DNA from: a virus
Taxonomy: Duplodnaviria > Heunggongvirae > Uroviricota > Caudoviricetes
IMG/VR virus record: IMGVR_UViG_2690316325_000016
Reading direction: 5' to 3' (one strand)
Length of the DNA: 21,799 bases
A program made the translations under genes and the position numbers. Shown in pieces: positions 3,951 through 17,050 of this stretch. Below the pieces are notes generated by a model. That model worked only from the letters and a program-made list of their open reading frames with translations, ran no database searches and was not told the origin of the DNA. How positions within the stretch are numbered: position 1 is the first letter of the stretch; every line of letters begins with the position of its first letter.

Positions 3951-4244
3951 ATGAAAAAAATGTTGTTTTCTGCCGCTCTGGCAATGCTTATTACAGGATG
4001 TGCTCAACAGACGTTTACTGTTGGAAACAAACCGACAGCAGTAACACCAAAGGAAACCATCACCCATCATTTCTTCGTTTCGGGAATTGGACAGGAGAAA
4101 ACTGTTGATGCAGCCAAAATTTGTGGCGGCGCAGAAAATGTTGTTAAAACAGAAACCCAGCAAACATTCGTAAATGGATTTCTCGGTTTTATTACTTTAG
4201 GCATTTATACTCCACTGGAAGCGCGTGTGTATTGCTCACAATAA
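3951..4244 (+). CDS. bor: Bor outer-membrane lipoprotein (serum resistance, lysogenic conversion)
   Basis: 97 aa, signal peptide with lipobox LITGC, near-identity to recalled lambda Bor; opposite strand to late operon as in lambda. Confidence 0.9.
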   Translation: MKKMLFSAALAMLITGCAQQTFTVGNKPTAVTPKETITHHFFVSGIGQEKTVDAAKICGGAENVVKTETQQTFVNGFLGFITLGIYTPLEARVYCSQ

Positions 4245-4254
4245 TTGCATGAGT

Positions 4255-4272
4255 TGCCCATCGATATGGGCA
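4255..4272. terminator. 18 bp perfect palindrome between convergent bor and Rz (candidate bidirectional terminator)
   Basis: TGCCCATCGATATGGGCA; no strong U-tract on either side. Confidence 0.3.
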
Positions 4273-4275
4273 GCT

Positions 4276-4737
4276 CTATCTGCACTGCTCATTAATATAC
4301 TTCTGGGTTCCTTCCAGTTGTTTTTGCATAGTGATCACCCTCTCTCTGAGGGTGAAATAATCCCGTTCAGCGGTGTCTGCCAGTCGGGGGCTGGTTGCAT
4401 TATCCACGCCGGAGGCGGTGGTGGCTTCACGCACTGACTGACAGACTGCTTTGATGTGCAACCGACGACGACCAGCGGCAACATCAGCGCGCAGAGTTTC
4501 ATTTTCAGCTTTCGCATTGGCTAATTCTCTCGAGTACTTTGCATCGAGTGCAGCAACATCACGCTGACGCTGCTGCATGTCAGCGATGGTGGCGATCGCC
4601 TGCTTCAGCTCACTGACTTTTTTATCACGCTGTTCTTTGTAGGCGATGGCGTTATCACGGTAATGATTGACCGCCCACGACAGGCAGACGATGATGCAGA
4701 TAACCAAAGCATAAATAATCGCGGCGACTCTGCTCAC
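4276..4737 (-). CDS. rz: Rz i-spanin (inner-membrane spanin); GTG start overlapping endolysin stop (track shows a TTG start at 4752)
   Basis: N-terminal TM segment then coiled-coil region; close match to recalled lambda Rz; GGGGGA upstream of GTG 4737. Confidence 0.9.
4335..4517 (-). CDS. rz1: Rz1 o-spanin lipoprotein, embedded in the +1 frame of Rz
   Basis: 60 aa, lipobox LVVVGC, proline-rich; fully nested within Rz. Confidence 0.9.
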
Positions 4738-6656: not shown

Positions 6657-6992
6657 ATGAAGTGGATTGTGATTGATACAGTTATCCAGCCATCATGCGG
6701 AATATCTTTTTCAGTCATATGGAGTAAAATAAAATTAATAATCTGGTATCAATCGGATGCTTTCTTACCTCCTGAAAGTATATTTACACTGACTCACACA
6801 GGCATCATGCTCAATAACAAAGTGCTACCTGTAACCATTTACAACGTAGTACCATTCAATAAAACATTCTGGAATTTAATCAAAAACAACCAGGAATGCC
6901 CTACAAATACAGATAACGTAATGAATGAATGCTTTAATAACCGTTGCACTCTGCAAATATGTCCTTATGGACTAAAACAACAAAGTCCATAA
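6657..6992 (+). CDS. AT-rich moron protein (111 aa), antisense to late operon
   Basis: AAGGAAAG SD 6 nt before ATG; TATACT -10 at 6611-6616; 11 bp stem hairpin at ORF end; 6 of 13 Ile codons are AUA. Confidence 0.5.
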
Positions 6993-7009: not shown

Positions 7010-7048
7010 GACAAAATCAATATAAACAGCCCCTCCGGAGAGGGGCTG
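7010..7048 (-). terminator. Intrinsic terminator-like hairpin plus U-tract for minus-strand transcription
   Basis: 9 bp GC-rich stem cagcccctc/gaggggctg with cgga loop, followed on minus strand by TTTATATTGATTTTG. Confidence 0.5.
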
Positions 7049-7272
7049 GAGAGTGGCGCTATGTGCCATTGCATGGTGCCGGGTGCCTCCCGGTGAATTC
7101 AGTACCAGCACCTGAATCCGCGATTATCCCATATACCTACTCGCTGATTGCCCCTCCGCACAGGGGGATTCACCATGCCAGTTTCTTTTAACAAACTCCC
7201 CGCAAACCAGACAACAGTCAACCGCCTGAATTGTGAAGTATTTAAAAATTTCTCCCGCTAACTGATACCCGG

Positions 7273-7766: not shown

Positions 7767-7906
7767 TAGACCGTATAACAAACACTCAATCAATACTTAA
7801 CAGAACTTTTATTTTTGACAAACATAAAATATTTTCAACAATATCCTGAGCCAGGTATATTTCAGTATAAGGCTCTGCCGGAAGGAATCTGGAAGAATGA
7901 ATATAG

Positions 7907-7980
7907 CGCGCTGTACTGGATTCGAACCAGTGACCGATTGCTTAGAAGGCAATTGCTCTGTCCGGCTGAGCTAACAACGC
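7907..7980 (-). tRNA. tRNA-Arg (anticodon UCU), CCA not encoded
   Basis: Cloverleaf parsed by hand: acceptor GCGTTGT/ACAGCGC, D-arm GCTC/GAGC, anticodon loop CTTCTAA, T-arm ACTGG-TTCGAAT-CCAGT. Confidence 0.9.
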
Positions 7981-8080: not shown

Positions 8081-8156
8081 TGGTGGCCCTTGCTGGATTT
8101 GAACCAGCGACCTGGCGATTATGAGTCGCTCGCTCTCACCACTGAGCTAAAGGGCC
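8081..8156 (-). tRNA. tRNA with CAU anticodon, ileX-like (tRNA-Ile2, lysidine) rather than Met; CCA encoded
   Basis: GGCCCTTTAGCTCAGTGGTGAGAGCGAGCGACTCATAATCGCCAGGTCGCTGGTTCAAATCCAGCAAGGGCCACCA; close to recalled E. coli ileX. Confidence 0.85.
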
Positions 8157-8299: not shown

Positions 8300-9121
8300 T
8301 TACCTAGTTACCTTTTTTAACTGCCGCTCAGCCCATGCTTCTTCAATATCAAACCGGGTCACCAGCGCATCATAGAATTTCTTAACTGTTTTTTCCCATG
8401 ACGCGCGTGTTATCTGGTTTGTCACCTCGCATATAGCATTAAATGCCTCCGTTGATGGTAGTCTTTCATAGCCACGACCACCACAACGCTGGCAGTCTCT
8501 GATAACAGGCATACCACGTTTTACCGACTCTTCACGATGAATGGCGACACCACGCCCACGGCAATCCTTACAGGCAGTGGAAACCTCACCCTTTCCGCCA
8601 CACTCCGGACAGGCAACTTTTACCACCTCCCTGACTTTTTTCCATTCTTCCCAGTAAGACGAATACACACCTTTCGTACACTTTGCCCATACCGGCGGCT
8701 TACCATCCGGATACTGGACCTTGTTTGTAAAAACTACGCTTTCAATAAATTTTTCCCCATAGCAACAAGGGCACTGCTTTTTACTCGCTGCGCTACGGGC
8801 ATAATCCTCAAAAGCGTACGAAGCCATAATGCGCATCACTACCGGTTTTATTTCTGCCGGAAGTTTTCTCAACGCCGCCACACGATCGCACCGACTGAGT
8901 GCATAATCTGCCAGTAATTCTGTTGCCCGCGCCCTGTCATTCATACTGATGCCCATTTTCCCCAGGAACGCAGAAAAACCCATCTCAGCCCGATTCTGTG
9001 TCATGCCCTGCGCGGCCATCACATCAGTGATACTCAGCGCATCTTTTGACGTTGAGGCCGATGCATCGGTCAGGCCAGGGGATTTTGGGGAGTAGTATTT
9101 CGGTAAATCTTCCAGTTTCAT
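8300..9121 (-). CDS. Putative late antiterminator Q (Q82/QuuQ-like family) with three CxxCGGxG-type zinc knuckles
   Basis: 273 aa; position immediately upstream of PR-prime/tR-prime and tRNAs; motifs CPECGGKG, CKDCRGRG, CQRCGGRG. Confidence 0.55.
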   Translation of the reverse strand: MKLEDLPKYYSPKSPGLTDASASTSKDALSITDVMAAQGMTQNRAEMGFSAFLGKMGISMNDRARATELLADYALSRCDRVAALRKLPAEIKPVVMRIMASYAFEDYARSAASKKQCPCCYGEKFIESVVFTNKVQYPDGKPPVWAKCTKGVYSSYWEEWKKVREVVKVACPECGGKGEVSTACKDCRGRGVAIHREESVKRGMPVIRDCQRCGGRGYERLPSTEAFNAICEVTNQITRASWEKTVKKFYDALVTRFDIEEAWAERQLKKVTR

Positions 9122-10999: not shown

Positions 11000-11155
11000 T
11001 TACTCCTCAGGTTCGTAAGCTGTGAAGACAGCGACCTCCGTCTGGCCGGTTCGGATTCGTACCTCGCAGAGGTCTTTCCTCGTTACCAGTGCCGTCACTA
11101 TGACGGTTAAACAGATGACGATCAGGGCGATTAACATCGCCTTTTGCTGCTTCAT
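11000..11155 (-). CDS. hokD: Hok-family type I toxin (HokD/RelF-like), 51 aa
   Basis: MKQQKAMLIALIVICLTVIVTALVTRKDLCEVRIRTGQTEVAVFTAYEPEE; AAGGAG SD; overlapping short mok-like ORF 11152-11211. Confidence 0.85.
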   Translation of the reverse strand: MKQQKAMLIALIVICLTVIVTALVTRKDLCEVRIRTGQTEVAVFTAYEPEE

Positions 11156-11413
11156 AGCCTGCTTCTCCTTGACCTTTCGGTCCGTAAGAGGCTAATCTCT
11201 ATGTGTCGCATAGATATGGCCTCAGATTAATGTTAAGCGTCTTGCAGGACGCGTAATGTTAACTGGGGCTTTTCTCTATCTGCCTTTTGGTGTTCATGCC
11301 TGAGACAGATAGCCTCAAGCACCCGCAGTCATTCTACTTAACTAAGATTTCCCCGCAAACCGTTTTTGTCCGGCACAGTAAATATCCAACTAAACCAATG
11401 GCGTTCGCTGTAT

Positions 11414-11593
11414 TTACCGCCAGTATTCAATGCACATGACCGCCATGAACACCCCTAAAAAAAGGGCATTTATATATCCAAATATTAATATCAAAACATC
11501 AACTTTTTCCATATACCTTGCTGTGAAGATGATGGGCATACATGATACGAACAACCAGAACGCAACAAACAAAAACTGCAATGCGTTTTTCAT
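11414..11593 (-). CDS. Small two-TM membrane protein (59 aa), AT-rich
   Basis: AGGAGG SD 4 nt upstream of ATG 11593; MKNALQFLFVAFWLFVSCMPIIFTARYMEKVDVLILIFGYINALFLGVFMAVMCIEYWR. Confidence 0.5.
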   Translation of the reverse strand: MKNALQFLFVAFWLFVSCMPIIFTARYMEKVDVLILIFGYINALFLGVFMAVMCIEYWR

Positions 11594-11763
11594 TATTCCT
11601 CCTACAATCAATGTGCAATTACATTTAAACACACCTCAGTTTGGCCGGACATATAAATATCTAAACCAGAAAAAATCACTTACATAGCGTTACAAACTCT
11701 TTAGTCTAAATATTCATCGTAAAACATTCCCCATACTTATCAGCCCGTTCTGCGCCAGGTAGC

Positions 11764-12080
11764 TCATTGCCTTATCTGGGAATCTGTAATCAGGTTTCCG
11801 GATGCTGGTGGATTCTCGCGTTTTAGTTGTTCATAAAAGTGCACAGCTTTAACCAGTTCTTCTGATGTAACCGGGACTGGCGGGGCAGTGAATAAGGCCT
11901 GAATTTCATAGTTCGGCCTGTCGTTACAATCCTCTTTTTTCGGTACATATTTCCAGTCACCAGACCACTACTTCCCCTGAAAGTCCGTAACGCCTTTTTT
12001 TTCACGTAGCGATATCGCCATGCCACTGTTTTTGCTTGCCCCGCCGTTTCATGCCCTTCCTGATAATTAACCTCGCTCAT
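11764..12080 (-). pseudogene. Probable disrupted gene: frameshift at an A8 homopolymer plus in-frame TAG
   Basis: Frame 0 is protein-like up to KKK (A8 tract at 11995-12002); a different frame carries the protein-like tail ...WSGDWKYVPKKEDCNDRPNYEIQALFTAPPVPVTSEELVKAVHFYEQLKRENPP... Confidence 0.35.
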
Positions 12081-12253
12081 TCATCGCCCCACTCATCACA
12101 ATATGCTTCGACCGGAGTTTTTCCTGCTTCATAATCATCACGCCATGCTTCAGCATCAGCAGCACTGCCACCACGTAACTCTGCATAGTCCATTAACAGT
12201 TCATGCCATTCTTCAAAACTGACGTTGTATTTAGTTGAACCAAAATCAGCCAT
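12077..12253 (-). CDS. Small highly acidic protein (58 aa)
   Basis: Codon-by-codon verified: MADFGSTKYNVSFEEWHELLMDYAELRGGSAADAEAWRDDYEAGKTPVEAYCDEWGDE; GAGGAAG SD; ATGA overlap with downstream gene. Confidence 0.55.
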   Translation of the reverse strand: MADFGSTKYNVSFEEWHELLMDYAELRGGSAADAEAWRDDYEAGKTPVEAYCDEWGDE

Positions 12254-12428
12254 TTTGTTCTTCCTCTTCGTCTTTTATTTCGTGATATGAGTAATTGCAG
12301 TAGTTAAAGAAAATATCTTTTGCTTCGTCATGTATTTCATCAGGCGTCGCATCATCATCCACTTCGAATTCATCCTCGAAATCTCCACCGGCTATTCCCG
12401 TTTCAATAATTATTTTAAACTTTCGCAT
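12246..12428 (-). CDS. Small highly acidic protein (60 aa)
   Basis: MRKFKIIIETGIAGGDFEDEFEVDDDATPDEIHDEAKDIFFNYCNYSYHEIKDEEEEQNG; overlaps next gene by 8 nt; SD separated from ATG by a GNRA hairpin. Confidence 0.5.
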   Translation of the reverse strand: MRKFKIIIETGIAGGDFEDEFEVDDDATPDEIHDEAKDIFFNYCNYSYHEIKDEEEEQNG

Positions 12429-12521
12429 TTAACTACCGCCCTTTCGGGCGGCCTCCTGATGTTCTGAGGGTGCAGAAATCCCTCCGGTTAAGGATTAAAT
12501 TTTTAACAGAGCTAAATTTAA

Positions 12522-12878
12522 TTATTCAGTTCTGGATTTTGTCGCCCTGCGTATCCGCGCTTTCGCGTTACGCTCAATCTGAATTAGCTTTTCTATATTT
12601 TTTCGCCTTTCCCGCTCCTCCTGACGCAAGAGCCTTACATCATCTGCCAGTCTGGTTTCTCTTTTCGCCACAGAGAGCATCCAGTCAAATGGCTCCACAA
12701 CTGCACCGCAGATTTTACAGCGGACCTGACGCTCTTTTTCGTCAACCCGGACAGAGGCGTGATGACAATATGGTCTTTCCGATGGCTCATAAAGAAAATT
12801 AACCTGATTACGAGGGTCATCCTCTTTTACCGGAAATAAAACGATATTGCTTAACTCATCCTCTGGTTTTATTTCCAT
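12522..12878 (-). CDS. Hypothetical protein with CHH...CxxC motif and basic C-terminal tail (alternative GTG start 12935)
   Basis: AAGGAGAGGAG SD immediately before ATG 12878; 118 aa. Confidence 0.6.
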   Translation of the reverse strand: MEIKPEDELSNIVLFPVKEDDPRNQVNFLYEPSERPYCHHASVRVDEKERQVRCKICGAVVEPFDWMLSVAKRETRLADDVRLLRQEERERRKNIEKLIQIERNAKARIRRATKSRTE

Positions 12879-12935
12879 GCTCCTCTCCTTTGATGCGAAT
12901 GCCAGCGGTAATTGAAGCCTGATAGCTAATTTCAC

Positions 12936-13358
12936 TCACAGTACCGCCTCCTGAAAATTACCCTGATAGAAAGCCAGTACACGCTGCATAGCTTCACTCT
13001 TCCGGCACTCGCGACAGATTATGTTTAGGCGACTGTCGTAGCGACGTATTTCTCCGTCAGGTAACGACCAGATAAGGTCCGGATCAACCACAACCGGTTT
13101 CTTCAGCTTTGCCCTCGATAATTTTTTGCGGGCATTTTGCCAGTCTTTACGAGCCTGTTCAGACGGGAATAACCCGTAGCCAGAATTGTATACATCGCCA
13201 CTGGCAACCAGCTCTCTGGCCAGAACGCTCATCAGATATCTTGTTGCCCCAGTTTTAGCTTCCAGTTGTCGTAACGTCTCGCGCCCACTCTGGCGTACGA
13301 GTTCAAGAACCTGTCCTTTAATTTTTTCCCGCTCTTCTTGTGTAAAAACTTTTGCCAC
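12936..13358 (-). CDS. Hypothetical protein (140 aa), possible winged-helix DNA-binding protein
   Basis: GTG start with AGGAGGG SD 4 nt upstream; stop overlaps start region of next gene. Confidence 0.6.
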   Translation of the reverse strand: MAKVFTQEEREKIKGQVLELVRQSGRETLRQLEAKTGATRYLMSVLARELVASGDVYNSGYGLFPSEQARKDWQNARKKLSRAKLKKPVVVDPDLIWSLPDGEIRRYDSRLNIICRECRKSEAMQRVLAFYQGNFQEAVL

Positions 13359-13398: not shown

Positions 13399-14373
13399 TT
13401 ACCCCCTGAAGCCCGGCGGAATTTCGTTATCCGGTTCAGAAATATGATTCACACAACGCTGGTTGTTCGTGCCGCTTACCGGGAGCAGCCAGGGGTTTTC
13501 AAAATTCCGGTCCGGTCCAAAAAACGTCGTCGCTCGCTGAACAAATTCCGTTCCCGTTTTCCCGGTAGCCGCAAGGTATCTTGCGTAACGCCTCACGCCA
13601 TCCAGCATGGCCTCTGGTGGCACCCCCTCGCGTAATCTGGCTTTCCAGGCACTGAAAGCGGATTTCTTCGGGTTTGCCCCGGCACGCAACGGGTATTCCC
13701 GCCAGACCTGTTCGAACACATCAGGATAATCCACTCGTCCCACAGGCTGCCCGGTGTTTTCCGGGACTACCCGATCGGCTTCCCGCTGAATGGCGGAATC
13801 GGCTTCCGGTGTCGTGCCTGCGGGCTGGCCAGGAGTGACGGTCTGAACATCCCCTGCCTGGTTCGTGGCGTTTTTTACGCCATGGACCATAGTGTTTTGA
13901 TCTTCTTGATCTGTATCTTTATCTGTATCTTTATCTGTCGTGACTCGTCGTGACATGTGCGTGACATTTCGTGACTCGCCGTGACAATCGCCATTTTGTT
14001 CCCGCTTTCTTTCCCTCTCTCGCTGCGCCCTCTTGCGCTCTGCCGGAGATTTTGCGGTTTGCGAAATATTGCCGTTGTCCTCTTTCAGCACCTGGCGTTT
14101 TTCCCATCCAGTGATTAAATCACCATCAAGTACCCGCCCCTGCATCGTCTGCAAAATTGAATCAATTACCTCTTCTGTCACGTCGAGCGCACTTGCCAAA
14201 TCTTCTGTCGTGACATCAATGTGACCTCGCGTGACATTTCGTGACGCGCTCACCAGGAGGTGGATATACACTGCCATCACTGTTGCAATTGGCTGCCCTG
14301 ACACCCTGGCAATTGTTCGCCACTTAGGGTCATTTGGCATGTCATGCCATAATCTGAGCCAGGCGTTAGCCAT
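13399..14373 (-). CDS. Putative phage replication initiator (O-like), containing internal iteron arrays
   Basis: 324 aa from ATG 14373 (GAGGTGA SD); position after cro/cII; acidic DKDTDKDTD linker; phased CGTGAC repeats inside gene. Confidence 0.55.
   Translation of the reverse strand: MANAWLRLWHDMPNDPKWRTIARVSGQPIATVMAVYIHLLVSASRNVTRGHIDVTTEDLASALDVTEEVIDSILQTMQGRVLDGDLITGWEKRQVLKEDNGNISQTAKSPAERKRAQRERERKREQNGDCHGESRNVTHMSRRVTTDKDTDKDTDQEDQNTMVHGVKNATNQAGDVQTVTPGQPAGTTPEADSAIQREADRVVPENTGQPVGRVDYPDVFEQVWREYPLRAGANPKKSAFSAWKARLREGVPPEAMLDGVRRYARYLAATGKTGTEFVQRATTFFGPDRNFENPWLLPVSGTNNQRCVNHISEPDNEIPPGFRG
13939..13985. repeat. Iteron-like array: five CGTGAC repeats at about 10 bp phase
   Basis: Copies start at 13939, 13949, 13960, 13970, 13980; preceded by tandem tctttatctgtatc repeats. 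Confidence 0.6.
14209..14245. repeat. Second iteron-like array: four (C/T)GTGAC repeats at about 10 bp phase
   Basis: Copies at 14209, 14220, 14230, 14240; inverted copy GTCACG near 14176. Confidence 0.55.
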
Positions 14374-14444
14374 ACTCACCTCTTCTGATACCGAATCTTT
14401 TTACTCACGAGTTGCCGGAAGCGATTCGATATGGCTATTGTCAG

Positions 14445-16992: not shown

Positions 16993-17050
16993 TTTCTGGT
17001 GACGTTTGGCGGTATCAGTTTTACTCCGTGACTGCTCTGCCGCCCTTTTT
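16993..17050 (+). ncRNA. dicF: DicF small regulatory RNA (ftsZ-targeting), processed from dicB operon transcript
   Basis: Sequence TTTCTGGTGACGTTTGGCGGTATCAGTTTTACTCCGTGACTGCTCTGCCGCCCTTTTT matches recalled DicF; terminal hairpin plus U-tract; correct spacing between ydfC and dicB. Confidence 0.8.

Follow-up and report, generated by a model that had tools for sequence, protein, structure and literature searches.

A two-gene block in the early rightward operon

The 21,799-nucleotide stretch of viral DNA analyzed here (IMG/VR record IMGVR_UViG_2690316325_000016; referred to as the window) is a Qin/Rac-type lambdoid prophage of Escherichia coli. On its minus strand it carries two small overlapping open reading frames (ORFs), ORF60 and ORF58, whose strongly acidic products of 60 and 58 amino acids (aa) are the subject of this work. 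The 1,251 bp around this pair (positions 11700-12950) are 99.8% identical to phage vB_EcoS-640R1, and the annotation of that phage record, together with family scans of the window ORFs, places the rightward early operon of the window on the minus strand. The operon reads, in order, cII/YdaT-like gene, O-like initiator, DUF977/Ren-like gene, zinc-ribbon gene, ORF60, ORF58, a broken gene, a small membrane protein, hok/sok, DUF968/HNH, rusA, and Q. ORF60 and ORF58 are thus located between the replication genes and hok/DUF968/rusA/Q, in a delayed-early rightward operon, and annotation and family scans agree with the initial annotation of the window in describing this setting as nin-like and as lying between the replication module and rusA/Q. 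The initial annotation had also considered the position unexpected. It is instead an ordinary site of small mosaic accessory genes, and the same block occupies the early-left region in Shiga toxin (Stx) phages.

The lengths, the coordinates, and the 8-nucleotide (nt) overlap initially reported for the two ORFs were confirmed from the sequence (Table 1). The ATG of ORF58 lies within the last codons of ORF60, and a GAGGA Shine-Dalgarno-like motif is found 8 nt ahead of it, inside the codons of the Glu-rich tail of ORF60. The presence of this motif ahead of the ORF58 start makes translational coupling from ORF60 to ORF58 plausible. To compare loci, we used 80 IMG/VR loci that were found with the ORF60 alignment, all of them near-identical E. 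coli loci; the identical 8-nt overlap was present in 79 of the 80. The two ORFs had initially been called coupled, and the arrangement on which that description rests (overlap, motif, and conservation across loci) holds, while coupling itself is what we infer from it. A scan called no promoter or terminator on the minus strand around ORF60 and ORF58.

The residue counts given initially (Asp/Glu, about 20 in ORF60 and 16 in ORF58; Lys/Arg, 5 and 4; many aromatic residues) proved exact. ORF60 has 20 Asp/Glu, 5 Lys/Arg, and 8 Phe/Trp/Tyr residues and a net charge of -15, and ORF58 has 16, 4, and 9 such residues, respectively, and a net charge of -12; the isoelectric point (pI) is 4.05 for both. 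The G+C contents of ORF60 and ORF58 are 0.37 and 0.44, compared with 0.48 for the window. Relative to a 95%-identical intact copy, the ratio of nonsynonymous to synonymous differences (pN/pS) was 0.09 for ORF60 and 0.04 for ORF58, and a decayed copy in a cryptic prophage has stop codons in both ORFs. These comparisons of copies point to strong purifying selection on both ORFs and show that they are real genes and not chance ORFs. The 352-bp ORF60/ORF58 block is present in 1,909 of 5,426 complete E. coli genomes (~35%).

Protein families, acidity, and predicted folds

Although neither sequence was recognized in the initial annotation, both are catalogued, as DUF7167 and phrog_519, and they are as common as the genome count above implies. 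Judged by profile matches, ORF60 and ORF58 are members of two unrelated and widespread phage families that have no assigned function. ORF60 matched the Pfam family DUF7167 (PF23768; E = 7.9e-15; 55.1 bits against a gathering cutoff of 24.4), with residues 2 to 53 aligned to positions 1 to 60 of the 60-position profile, and it also matched phrog_1997 (E = 9e-31). The Pfam scan of ORF60 returned nothing else except a sub-threshold match to AnkX_ins. Nearly all ORF60 homologs carry a precomputed PF23768 assignment, and in RefSeq WP_001224662.1 is named "DUF7167 family protein" and WP_000753060.1 "hypothetical protein." Compared with the other proteins of DUF7167 and phrog_1997, ORF60 is an ordinary member that shows no difference from its family. 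Its core follows the DUF7167 motif KFxVxIET...FEVEDDAT.EEI..EAKD.F.N.CNYG. In an alignment of 56 sequences, I32 is invariant and V6, I8, E9, T10, E22, A36, F40, C44, and Y46 are at least 90% conserved, with V6, I8, F21, I32, A36, F40, C44, and Y46 making up a conserved hydrophobic and aromatic core.

ORF58 matched phrog_519 (E = 4.5e-23), with residues 1 to 58 falling on positions 76 to 137 of the 143-position profile. It therefore matches the conserved part of the profile from end to end, in the company of members such as CBA120 orf183 and ORF8 of Morganella phage Mecenats66. An exhaustive HMMER search grouped its relatives into 65 clusters at 50% identity, and because these are almost all stand-alone proteins of 48 to 80 aa, the additional N-terminal part of the profile is not a conserved domain. 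Matches to ORF58 by tblastn were found in 202 phage records. The protein has no NCBIfam family and no Pfam match even at E <= 10. ORF58 and stand-alone phage proteins of 50 to 65 aa share the motif FEEW..L..A..GGS..D..AWR.DYDAG.TP..AW.DEW, in which W37 is invariant, F13, W16, Y41, G44, and P47 are at least 90% conserved, and W51 and W55 are also conserved; the conserved hydrophobic and aromatic core comprises F13, W16, L20, A24, W37, Y41, A50, W51, and W55. Three apparent links of ORF58 to other proteins were rejected. The label DUF5419 on a homolog in one phage record belongs to a protein that has no Pfam match at E <= 10; a 95-nt megablast match pointing to DUF551 is limited to the 3'-terminal part of ORF58 and the opening codons of the gene after it; and long "homologs" of 855 to 6,207 aa with several matched stretches are spurious, being beta-rich surface repeats of the type YTVTF.DWDGTVL....

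Extreme acidity is, as far as the alignments tell, a conserved trait of both families. Net charge has a median of -13 (range, -18 to -10) among 56 DUF7167 proteins and a median of -10 (range, -15 to -4) among 32 relatives of ORF58, and in both families acidic residues occupy fixed columns. Structure prediction, which had been suggested initially as a check for a DNA-mimic surface, gave confident, small, single-domain folds without enzyme-like features. These folds resemble neither Ocr nor ArdA, nor any other protein of known function with a solved structure. In the AlphaFold2 model of ORF60 (mean pLDDT, 88.9), a hairpin of two beta strands (residues 2 to 8 and 17 to 23) packs on a helix (residues 29 to 43) that is followed by a disordered poly-Glu tail. 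The model of ORF58 (mean pLDDT, 87.2) is a three-helix bundle with helices at residues 13 to 27, 34 to 42, and 47 to 55. The acidic residues of the ORF58 helices, as read from the sequence, are spaced at i, i+4, and i+7/8, opposite the hydrophobic face, and the exposed surface should therefore be covered with carboxylates. Fold searches with both models returned just generic small folds or uncharacterized phage proteins. The best BFVD match of ORF60 was its homolog in phAPEC8 (TM, 0.78), and other BFVD matches include uncharacterized proteins of Lactococcus and Streptomyces phages.

The initial annotation had likened the two proteins to DNA mimics acting by the logic of Ocr and ArdA. Of this comparison, the conserved acidity stands, while similarity in sequence or fold to Ocr, ArdA, or any solved DNA mimic was not found. 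Both proteins share the general hallmark of the DNA-mimic class (small size, a pI of about 3 to 5, and a charge conserved across homologs). Neither is homologous to Ocr (PF08684) or ArdA (PF07275) in Pfam or in profile searches against PDB sequences. Single-sequence and profile searches of PDB sequences, as well as searches of NCBIfam and PADLOC, yielded nothing relevant for either ORF, and the PADLOC-DB defense profiles had no match at E <= 1 to ORF60, ORF58, or their neighbors. The elongated, usually dimeric fold of the Ocr/ArdA type, with carboxylates at the B-DNA phosphate spacing over at least 20 bp, was likewise not found in either protein, the carboxylate spacing itself not having been compared. 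Given these family and fold searches, neither protein belongs to the Ocr or ArdA family or to any characterized inhibitor family. There is no positive evidence for DNA mimicry, and an anti-defense role would still fit the data, as nothing found here contradicts it.

Homology to a nin-region protein of known function, which the initial annotation had named as an outcome that would speak against its proposal, was not found in Pfam, NCBIfam, or PHROG, and neither ORF matched NinB, NinE, NinG, NinH, or other Nin families in Pfam or PHROG. ORF60 and ORF58 do resemble lambda NinA to NinH, Orf60a, Orf61, Orf63, and Ea8.5 in being nonessential-type, mosaic, small delayed-early genes at equivalent map positions. 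Unlike the lambda nin and exo-xis proteins, both families also occur in virulent phages.

Distribution and possible roles

Outside enterobacterial lambdoid prophages, the two families are found apart from each other. Relatives of ORF58 occur in Ackermannviridae (e.g., CBA120 orf183), in a Morganella phage two genes upstream of rdgC, in a phiKMV-like Koutsourovirus (Autographiviridae) downstream of the DNA polymerase gene, in a Mu-like early region after HU-like genes, and after a module of DUF3799 exonuclease, RecT, and single-stranded DNA-binding protein (SSB). In Kuttervirus they adjoin capsid genes, and in Enterobacter prophages ORF58 directly follows an Ead_Ea22 protein without any DUF7167 gene. 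A further, distant relative with 38% identity (metagenomic contigs L106 to L108; L106 3297-3473) lies directly upstream of one or two proteins with a SocA_Panacea domain, which is known from antitoxins of toxin-antitoxin systems. A Mom-like protein (PF25680; E = 1e-4, below the cutoff) was observed after ORF58 in 5 of the 80 loci (e.g., L077 3694-4224); Mom is a DNA-modification family linked to restriction evasion.

DUF7167 genes are present in Enterococcus Herelleviridae, in a Klebsiella prophage that lacks ORF58, and in Guernseyvirinae, where the gene and the beginning of a PD-(D/E)XK exonuclease gene overlap, within a module that has a gp2.5-like SSB and DNA polymerase. A conserved cluster of TelA, vWA-TerF-like, TerD, TerC, SprT-like, and PRTase genes encloses DUF7167 in E. 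coli phages of the Phapecoctavirus type, in a 151-kb Pseudomonas phage that resembles them, and in related metagenomic contigs (L103 5001-5186; L010 and L011 2501-2674), and this context is completely unlike that in temperate phages. Because each family occurs without the other in other phages, ORF60 and ORF58 are not an obligate pair, and we rejected an obligate ORF60-ORF58 heterodimer.

Both families are found repeatedly within a few genes of Erf/RecT/gp2.5-like annealing proteins, YqaJ/DUF3799/PD-(D/E)XK exonucleases, SSB, Dam, and theta. The early-left operons that contain DUF7167 are of several types, namely, Arf-Erf-SSB-x-Dam-DUF7167-theta, GamL-DUF3799-RecT-...-DUF7167-...-theta, and Erf-YqaJ-...-SSB-...-DUF7167. 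A series made up of the zinc-ribbon gene, a 70-aa insert, ORF60, ORF58, and an Ea22-like gene occupies the early-left region of ArgO145 and of Stx2a phages, among ead/Ea22-like genes. The block, which is part of the rightward operon in the window, therefore shifts from one early operon to the other.

The gene that immediately follows ORF58 in ArgO145 (4084-4719, minus strand) encodes an Ea22-like protein. A 2026 preprint on the P2 OLD system reports that lambdoid recombination loci hold both RecBCD-modulating triggers (HK75/HK446 gp33) and an inhibitor of P2 OLD, Oad2 (HK446 gp27), a relative of P22 EaE that is in some cases fused to EaD/Ea22 proteins; its authors propose that these loci are a reservoir of RecBCD inhibitors and fast-evolving anti-immunity proteins (bioRxiv 10.64898/2026.07.10.737580). 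The same preprint reports toxicity of RecBCD inhibitors to OLD+ cells. The ArgO145 Ea22-like protein is similar to Oad2 (HK446 8509-9036, minus strand; BLASTP E = 2e-7). The similarity is local and includes a common coiled coil and a TPATDAFLAEVRA segment, and it therefore places ORF60 and ORF58 in the same kind of variable Ea22/EaE accessory block. The pair shares with the oad2 and gp33 genes a variable early accessory neighborhood around recombination genes and Ea22/EaE-like proteins, and gp33 is likewise acidic (56 aa; net charge, -8). Unlike those genes, the pair in the window lies in the rightward operon and not in a recombination locus. Homology of ORF60 or ORF58 to HK446 Oad2 (gp27), gp33, or gp36 (annotated as "anti-restriction") was rejected, as only noise was obtained; when both families were compared by BLASTP and by profile with gp27, gp28 to gp31, gp33, gp36, and gp46 to gp47 of HK446, the best E values were 0.2 to 0.5.

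Small, strongly negative proteins without enzymatic motifs also include T7 gp5.9, lambda Gam, phi29 p56, Ugi, Ocr, and ArdA. T7 gene 5.9 lies in a DNA-metabolism region adjoining an exonuclease gene, as is also found for the ORF60 and ORF58 families. ORF60 and ORF58 resemble no solved structure in fold or sequence, and the likeness to these proteins is one of possible mode of action, not of membership.

Our preferred reading, which we put forward tentatively and as a good deal less than settled, is that ORF60 and ORF58 inhibit a host or defense protein by binding to it directly, with both the mechanism and the class of target deduced from the features above. On this reading, the two are unrelated and independently mobile early accessory genes of phages that were brought together, in the lambdoid prophages of E. 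coli, as a single block with putative translational coupling; in the window, this block is read in the delayed-early rightward operon after the replication genes. Each product, a small, compact, strongly acidic protein without catalytic features, would act alone by stoichiometric binding, and its carboxylate-covered surface would occupy the basic nucleic acid-binding surface of a host or defense protein. A nuclease would be a likely target, as would a sensor acting on phage DNA during replication or recombination.

Several features, among them the conserved negative charge and the strong purifying selection, are consistent with direct inhibition of this kind. The families travel alone, have no constant neighbor, and are found in phages of hosts from Enterococcus to Pseudomonas. 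Because they occur alone in very different phages, in early accessory regions, while keeping a compact acidic fold and no catalytic motif, their distribution suggests a self-contained function aimed outside the phage. Delayed-early timing, with no promoter of its own detected for the pair, would suit the protection of replicating or recombining DNA or the evasion of its sensors. By analogy, the location of both families, in variable stretches of early accessory genes that adjoin replication and recombination genes, fits with the report of an anti-defense gene and a candidate RecBCD inhibitor in such regions. A more far-reaching version, which we regard as rather unlikely, is that at least one of the proteins represents a new family of compact acidic inhibitors, directed at a conserved bacterial DNA-handling protein or at a defense sensor that watches phage replication and recombination. 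The candidate targets may include RecBCD, an SSB-client nuclease, or a defense system of the OLD, retron, or Gabija type, and such a role would explain the carriage of the genes by about one-third of E. coli genomes and by virulent phages.

A number of observations weigh against inhibition of a host or defense protein. In Pfam, PDB, and fold searches, neither protein resembled a known inhibitor or DNA mimic in sequence or structure. Our literature search gave no experimental datum for either family, with phrog_519 appearing just as a machine-learning prediction; it found no mention of DUF7167, PF23768, phrog_1997, WP_001224662.1, or WP_000753060.1, and the signature peptides of neither protein were present in the supplementary data of a screen of accessory genes (PMC12373910). 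Expression in the delayed-early phase comes too late for incoming DNA to be shielded from restriction, and the proximity to recombination genes is partly a by-product of the layout of early operons. Many neighboring small phage proteins are also acidic (net charge, -7 to -19), and acidity alone is therefore a weak discriminator, with ORF60 and ORF58 at the extreme in acidity per residue.

The same neighborhoods could be read as pointing inward, to accessory factors of the phage's own replication and recombination that serve as acidic regulators or chaperones of a basic DNA-binding protein (an annealing protein, SSB, an exonuclease, or the upstream zinc-ribbon protein). The families recur beside annealing protein, exonuclease, SSB, and polymerase genes in temperate and virulent phages alike, the pair directly follows the replication module in the window, and ORF60 follows the basic zinc-ribbon/coiled-coil protein in 54 of the 80 E. 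coli prophage loci. Such a role is the main rival to direct inhibition, and we find it rather unlikely. No phage partner is constant, the recombinases and exonucleases found nearby come from several unrelated families, the zinc-ribbon neighbor is confined to closely related E. coli prophage blocks, and both families also occur away from such genes (in the TelA/TerD cluster and beside Kuttervirus capsid genes and Panacea-domain genes). Modulation of the lysis-lysogeny decision or of host physiology, in the manner of the exo-xis proteins of lambda and Stx phages (Orf60a, Orf61, Orf63, Ea8.5, and Ea22), seems less probable still. It would agree with the early-left position of the block among ead/Ea22-like genes in ArgO145 and Stx2a phages, with the Ead_Ea22 protein that precedes ORF58 in Enterobacter prophages, and with the shifts in the developmental decision that have been reported for exo-xis region proteins. 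However, both families occur in strictly virulent phages (Ackermannviridae, Koutsourovirus, Guernseyvirinae, and Herelleviridae), which have no lysogeny decision to make, and this disfavors such a role. Neither family has a copy in lambda among the tblastn matches listed, and an exo-xis modeling paper (PMC8614690) contains neither signature peptide.

Classical anti-restriction by DNA mimicry on the Ocr/ArdA model, or an anti-CRISPR activity, has in our judgment only a small chance of being correct. Small size and extreme, conserved negative charge speak for it, as does a Dam methylase or Mom-like gene that is sometimes adjacent, and Kuttervirus members of phrog_519 were scored as anti-CRISPR candidates by the machine-learning tools PaCRISPR and AcRanker, which is weak evidence. 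No anti-CRISPR homology and no adjacent helix-turn-helix "aca" gene was found, the neighbors being zinc-ribbon, Ea22-like, and small membrane proteins, and the family and fold searches described above gave no likeness to Ocr, ArdA, or a solved DNA mimic. That the two are nonfunctional hitchhiking ORFs or annotation artifacts, as might be supposed from their very short length, a G+C content below that of the window, and the lack of an assigned function, is hardly credible. The low pN/pS values, the restriction of stop codons to a decayed prophage, homologs in distant phage families, conserved hydrophobic cores, and confident fold predictions exclude it for practical purposes.

If either protein truly inhibits a host nuclease or defense system, this would give a function to two very common "hypothetical" families, one of them a Pfam DUF, and would strengthen the view that counterdefense genes reside in the variable accessory blocks of the Ea22/nin type in lambdoid phages. 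The families also occur in phage groups that are used for therapy or are of therapeutic interest (Kuttervirus, Phapecoctavirus, and Enterococcus Herelleviridae). As things stand, the pair is nothing unusual among the small acidic accessory genes of phages, and its value is that of a well-defined and inexpensive candidate pair for a defense-panel screen.

Neighboring genes and other features

Table 1. Positions of ORF60, ORF58, and other features of the window
Feature	Position	Strand	Remarks
O-like replication initiator	13399-14379	-	
DUF977/Ren-like gene	12936-13358	-	
Zinc-ribbon and coiled-coil protein	12522-12878 or 12522-12935	-	118 aa (internal ATG) or 137 aa (GTG); basic; phrog_1621
Hairpin GCCGCCC-GAAA-GGGCGGU	12435-12452	-	Inside the 93-nt gap 12429-12521, 6 nt before the ORF60 ATG
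ORF60	12246-12428	-	60 aa, ATG start; DUF7167 family; identical to WP_001224662.1
ORF58	12077-12253	-	58 aa, ATG start; phrog_519 family; identical to WP_000753060.1
Putative coupling junction	12246-12266	-	GAGGA motif (12262-12266) and ATGGCTGA overlap (12246-12253)
Broken downstream gene	11717-12080	-	Remnant of a 171-aa gene starting MSEINYQEGHETAGQAK
85-aa ORF	11823-12080	-	Very basic, pI 11.1; ATGA overlap with ORF58
72-aa hydrophobic, membrane-like ORF	11414-11632	-	No match in Pfam or PHROG
hok-family toxin and sok antisense RNA	11000-11155 and 11153-11324	-	PF01848, E = 1e-23; Rfam RF01794, 106.7 bits
tRNA-Arg(tct) and tRNA-Met(cat)	7906-7980 and 8081-8156	-	ARAGORN
STnc100 small RNA	7018-7207	-	Rfam, 132.4 bits
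ORF adjoining STnc100	6657-6992	+	
DicF small RNA	16994-17045	+	Rfam, 76.7 bits; early-left region

The zinc-ribbon gene is the commonest upstream neighbor of ORF60. Its product matched phrog_1621 (E = 3e-56 over residues 20 to 136), and its match to Zn_Ribbon_TF is weak. Because its homologs begin at the internal ATG (position 12878) and are annotated elsewhere as proteins of 118 aa, the gene probably starts there and not at the GTG (position 12935). The hairpin between this gene and ORF60 is the centroid structure (-15.5 kcal/mol), with a z score of -2.05 for the whole 93-nt gap. A tR2-like terminator was considered for it and rejected; no U-run follows the hairpin, which is therefore not a canonical intrinsic terminator, and the terminator scan made no call. 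The 3' arm of the hairpin might act as a weak ribosome-binding site. The hairpin might also influence translation initiation or the stability of the mRNA, or it might be the trace of a recombination junction within the mosaic block.

Downstream of ORF58, the 171-aa gene is intact in 63 of the 80 loci and encodes a protein without a Pfam family. In the window, the matches to this gene are spread over three different frames and an internal part is deleted; PGAP labels the region "frameshifted; internal stop." The 85-aa basic ORF that overlaps ORF58 was considered as a partner of ORF58 and rejected, being an out-of-frame remnant of this broken gene. In 49 of the 80 loci, the 72-aa membrane-like ORF is conserved two genes downstream of the pair. 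Beyond it, the hok-family gene and the sok RNA represent a type I toxin-antitoxin module within the nin-like region. The two tRNA genes are situated just downstream of the Q antiterminator gene, and STnc100 adjoins an ORF on the plus strand that agrees in position and length with the gene for the IraM anti-adapter in the annotation of related records.

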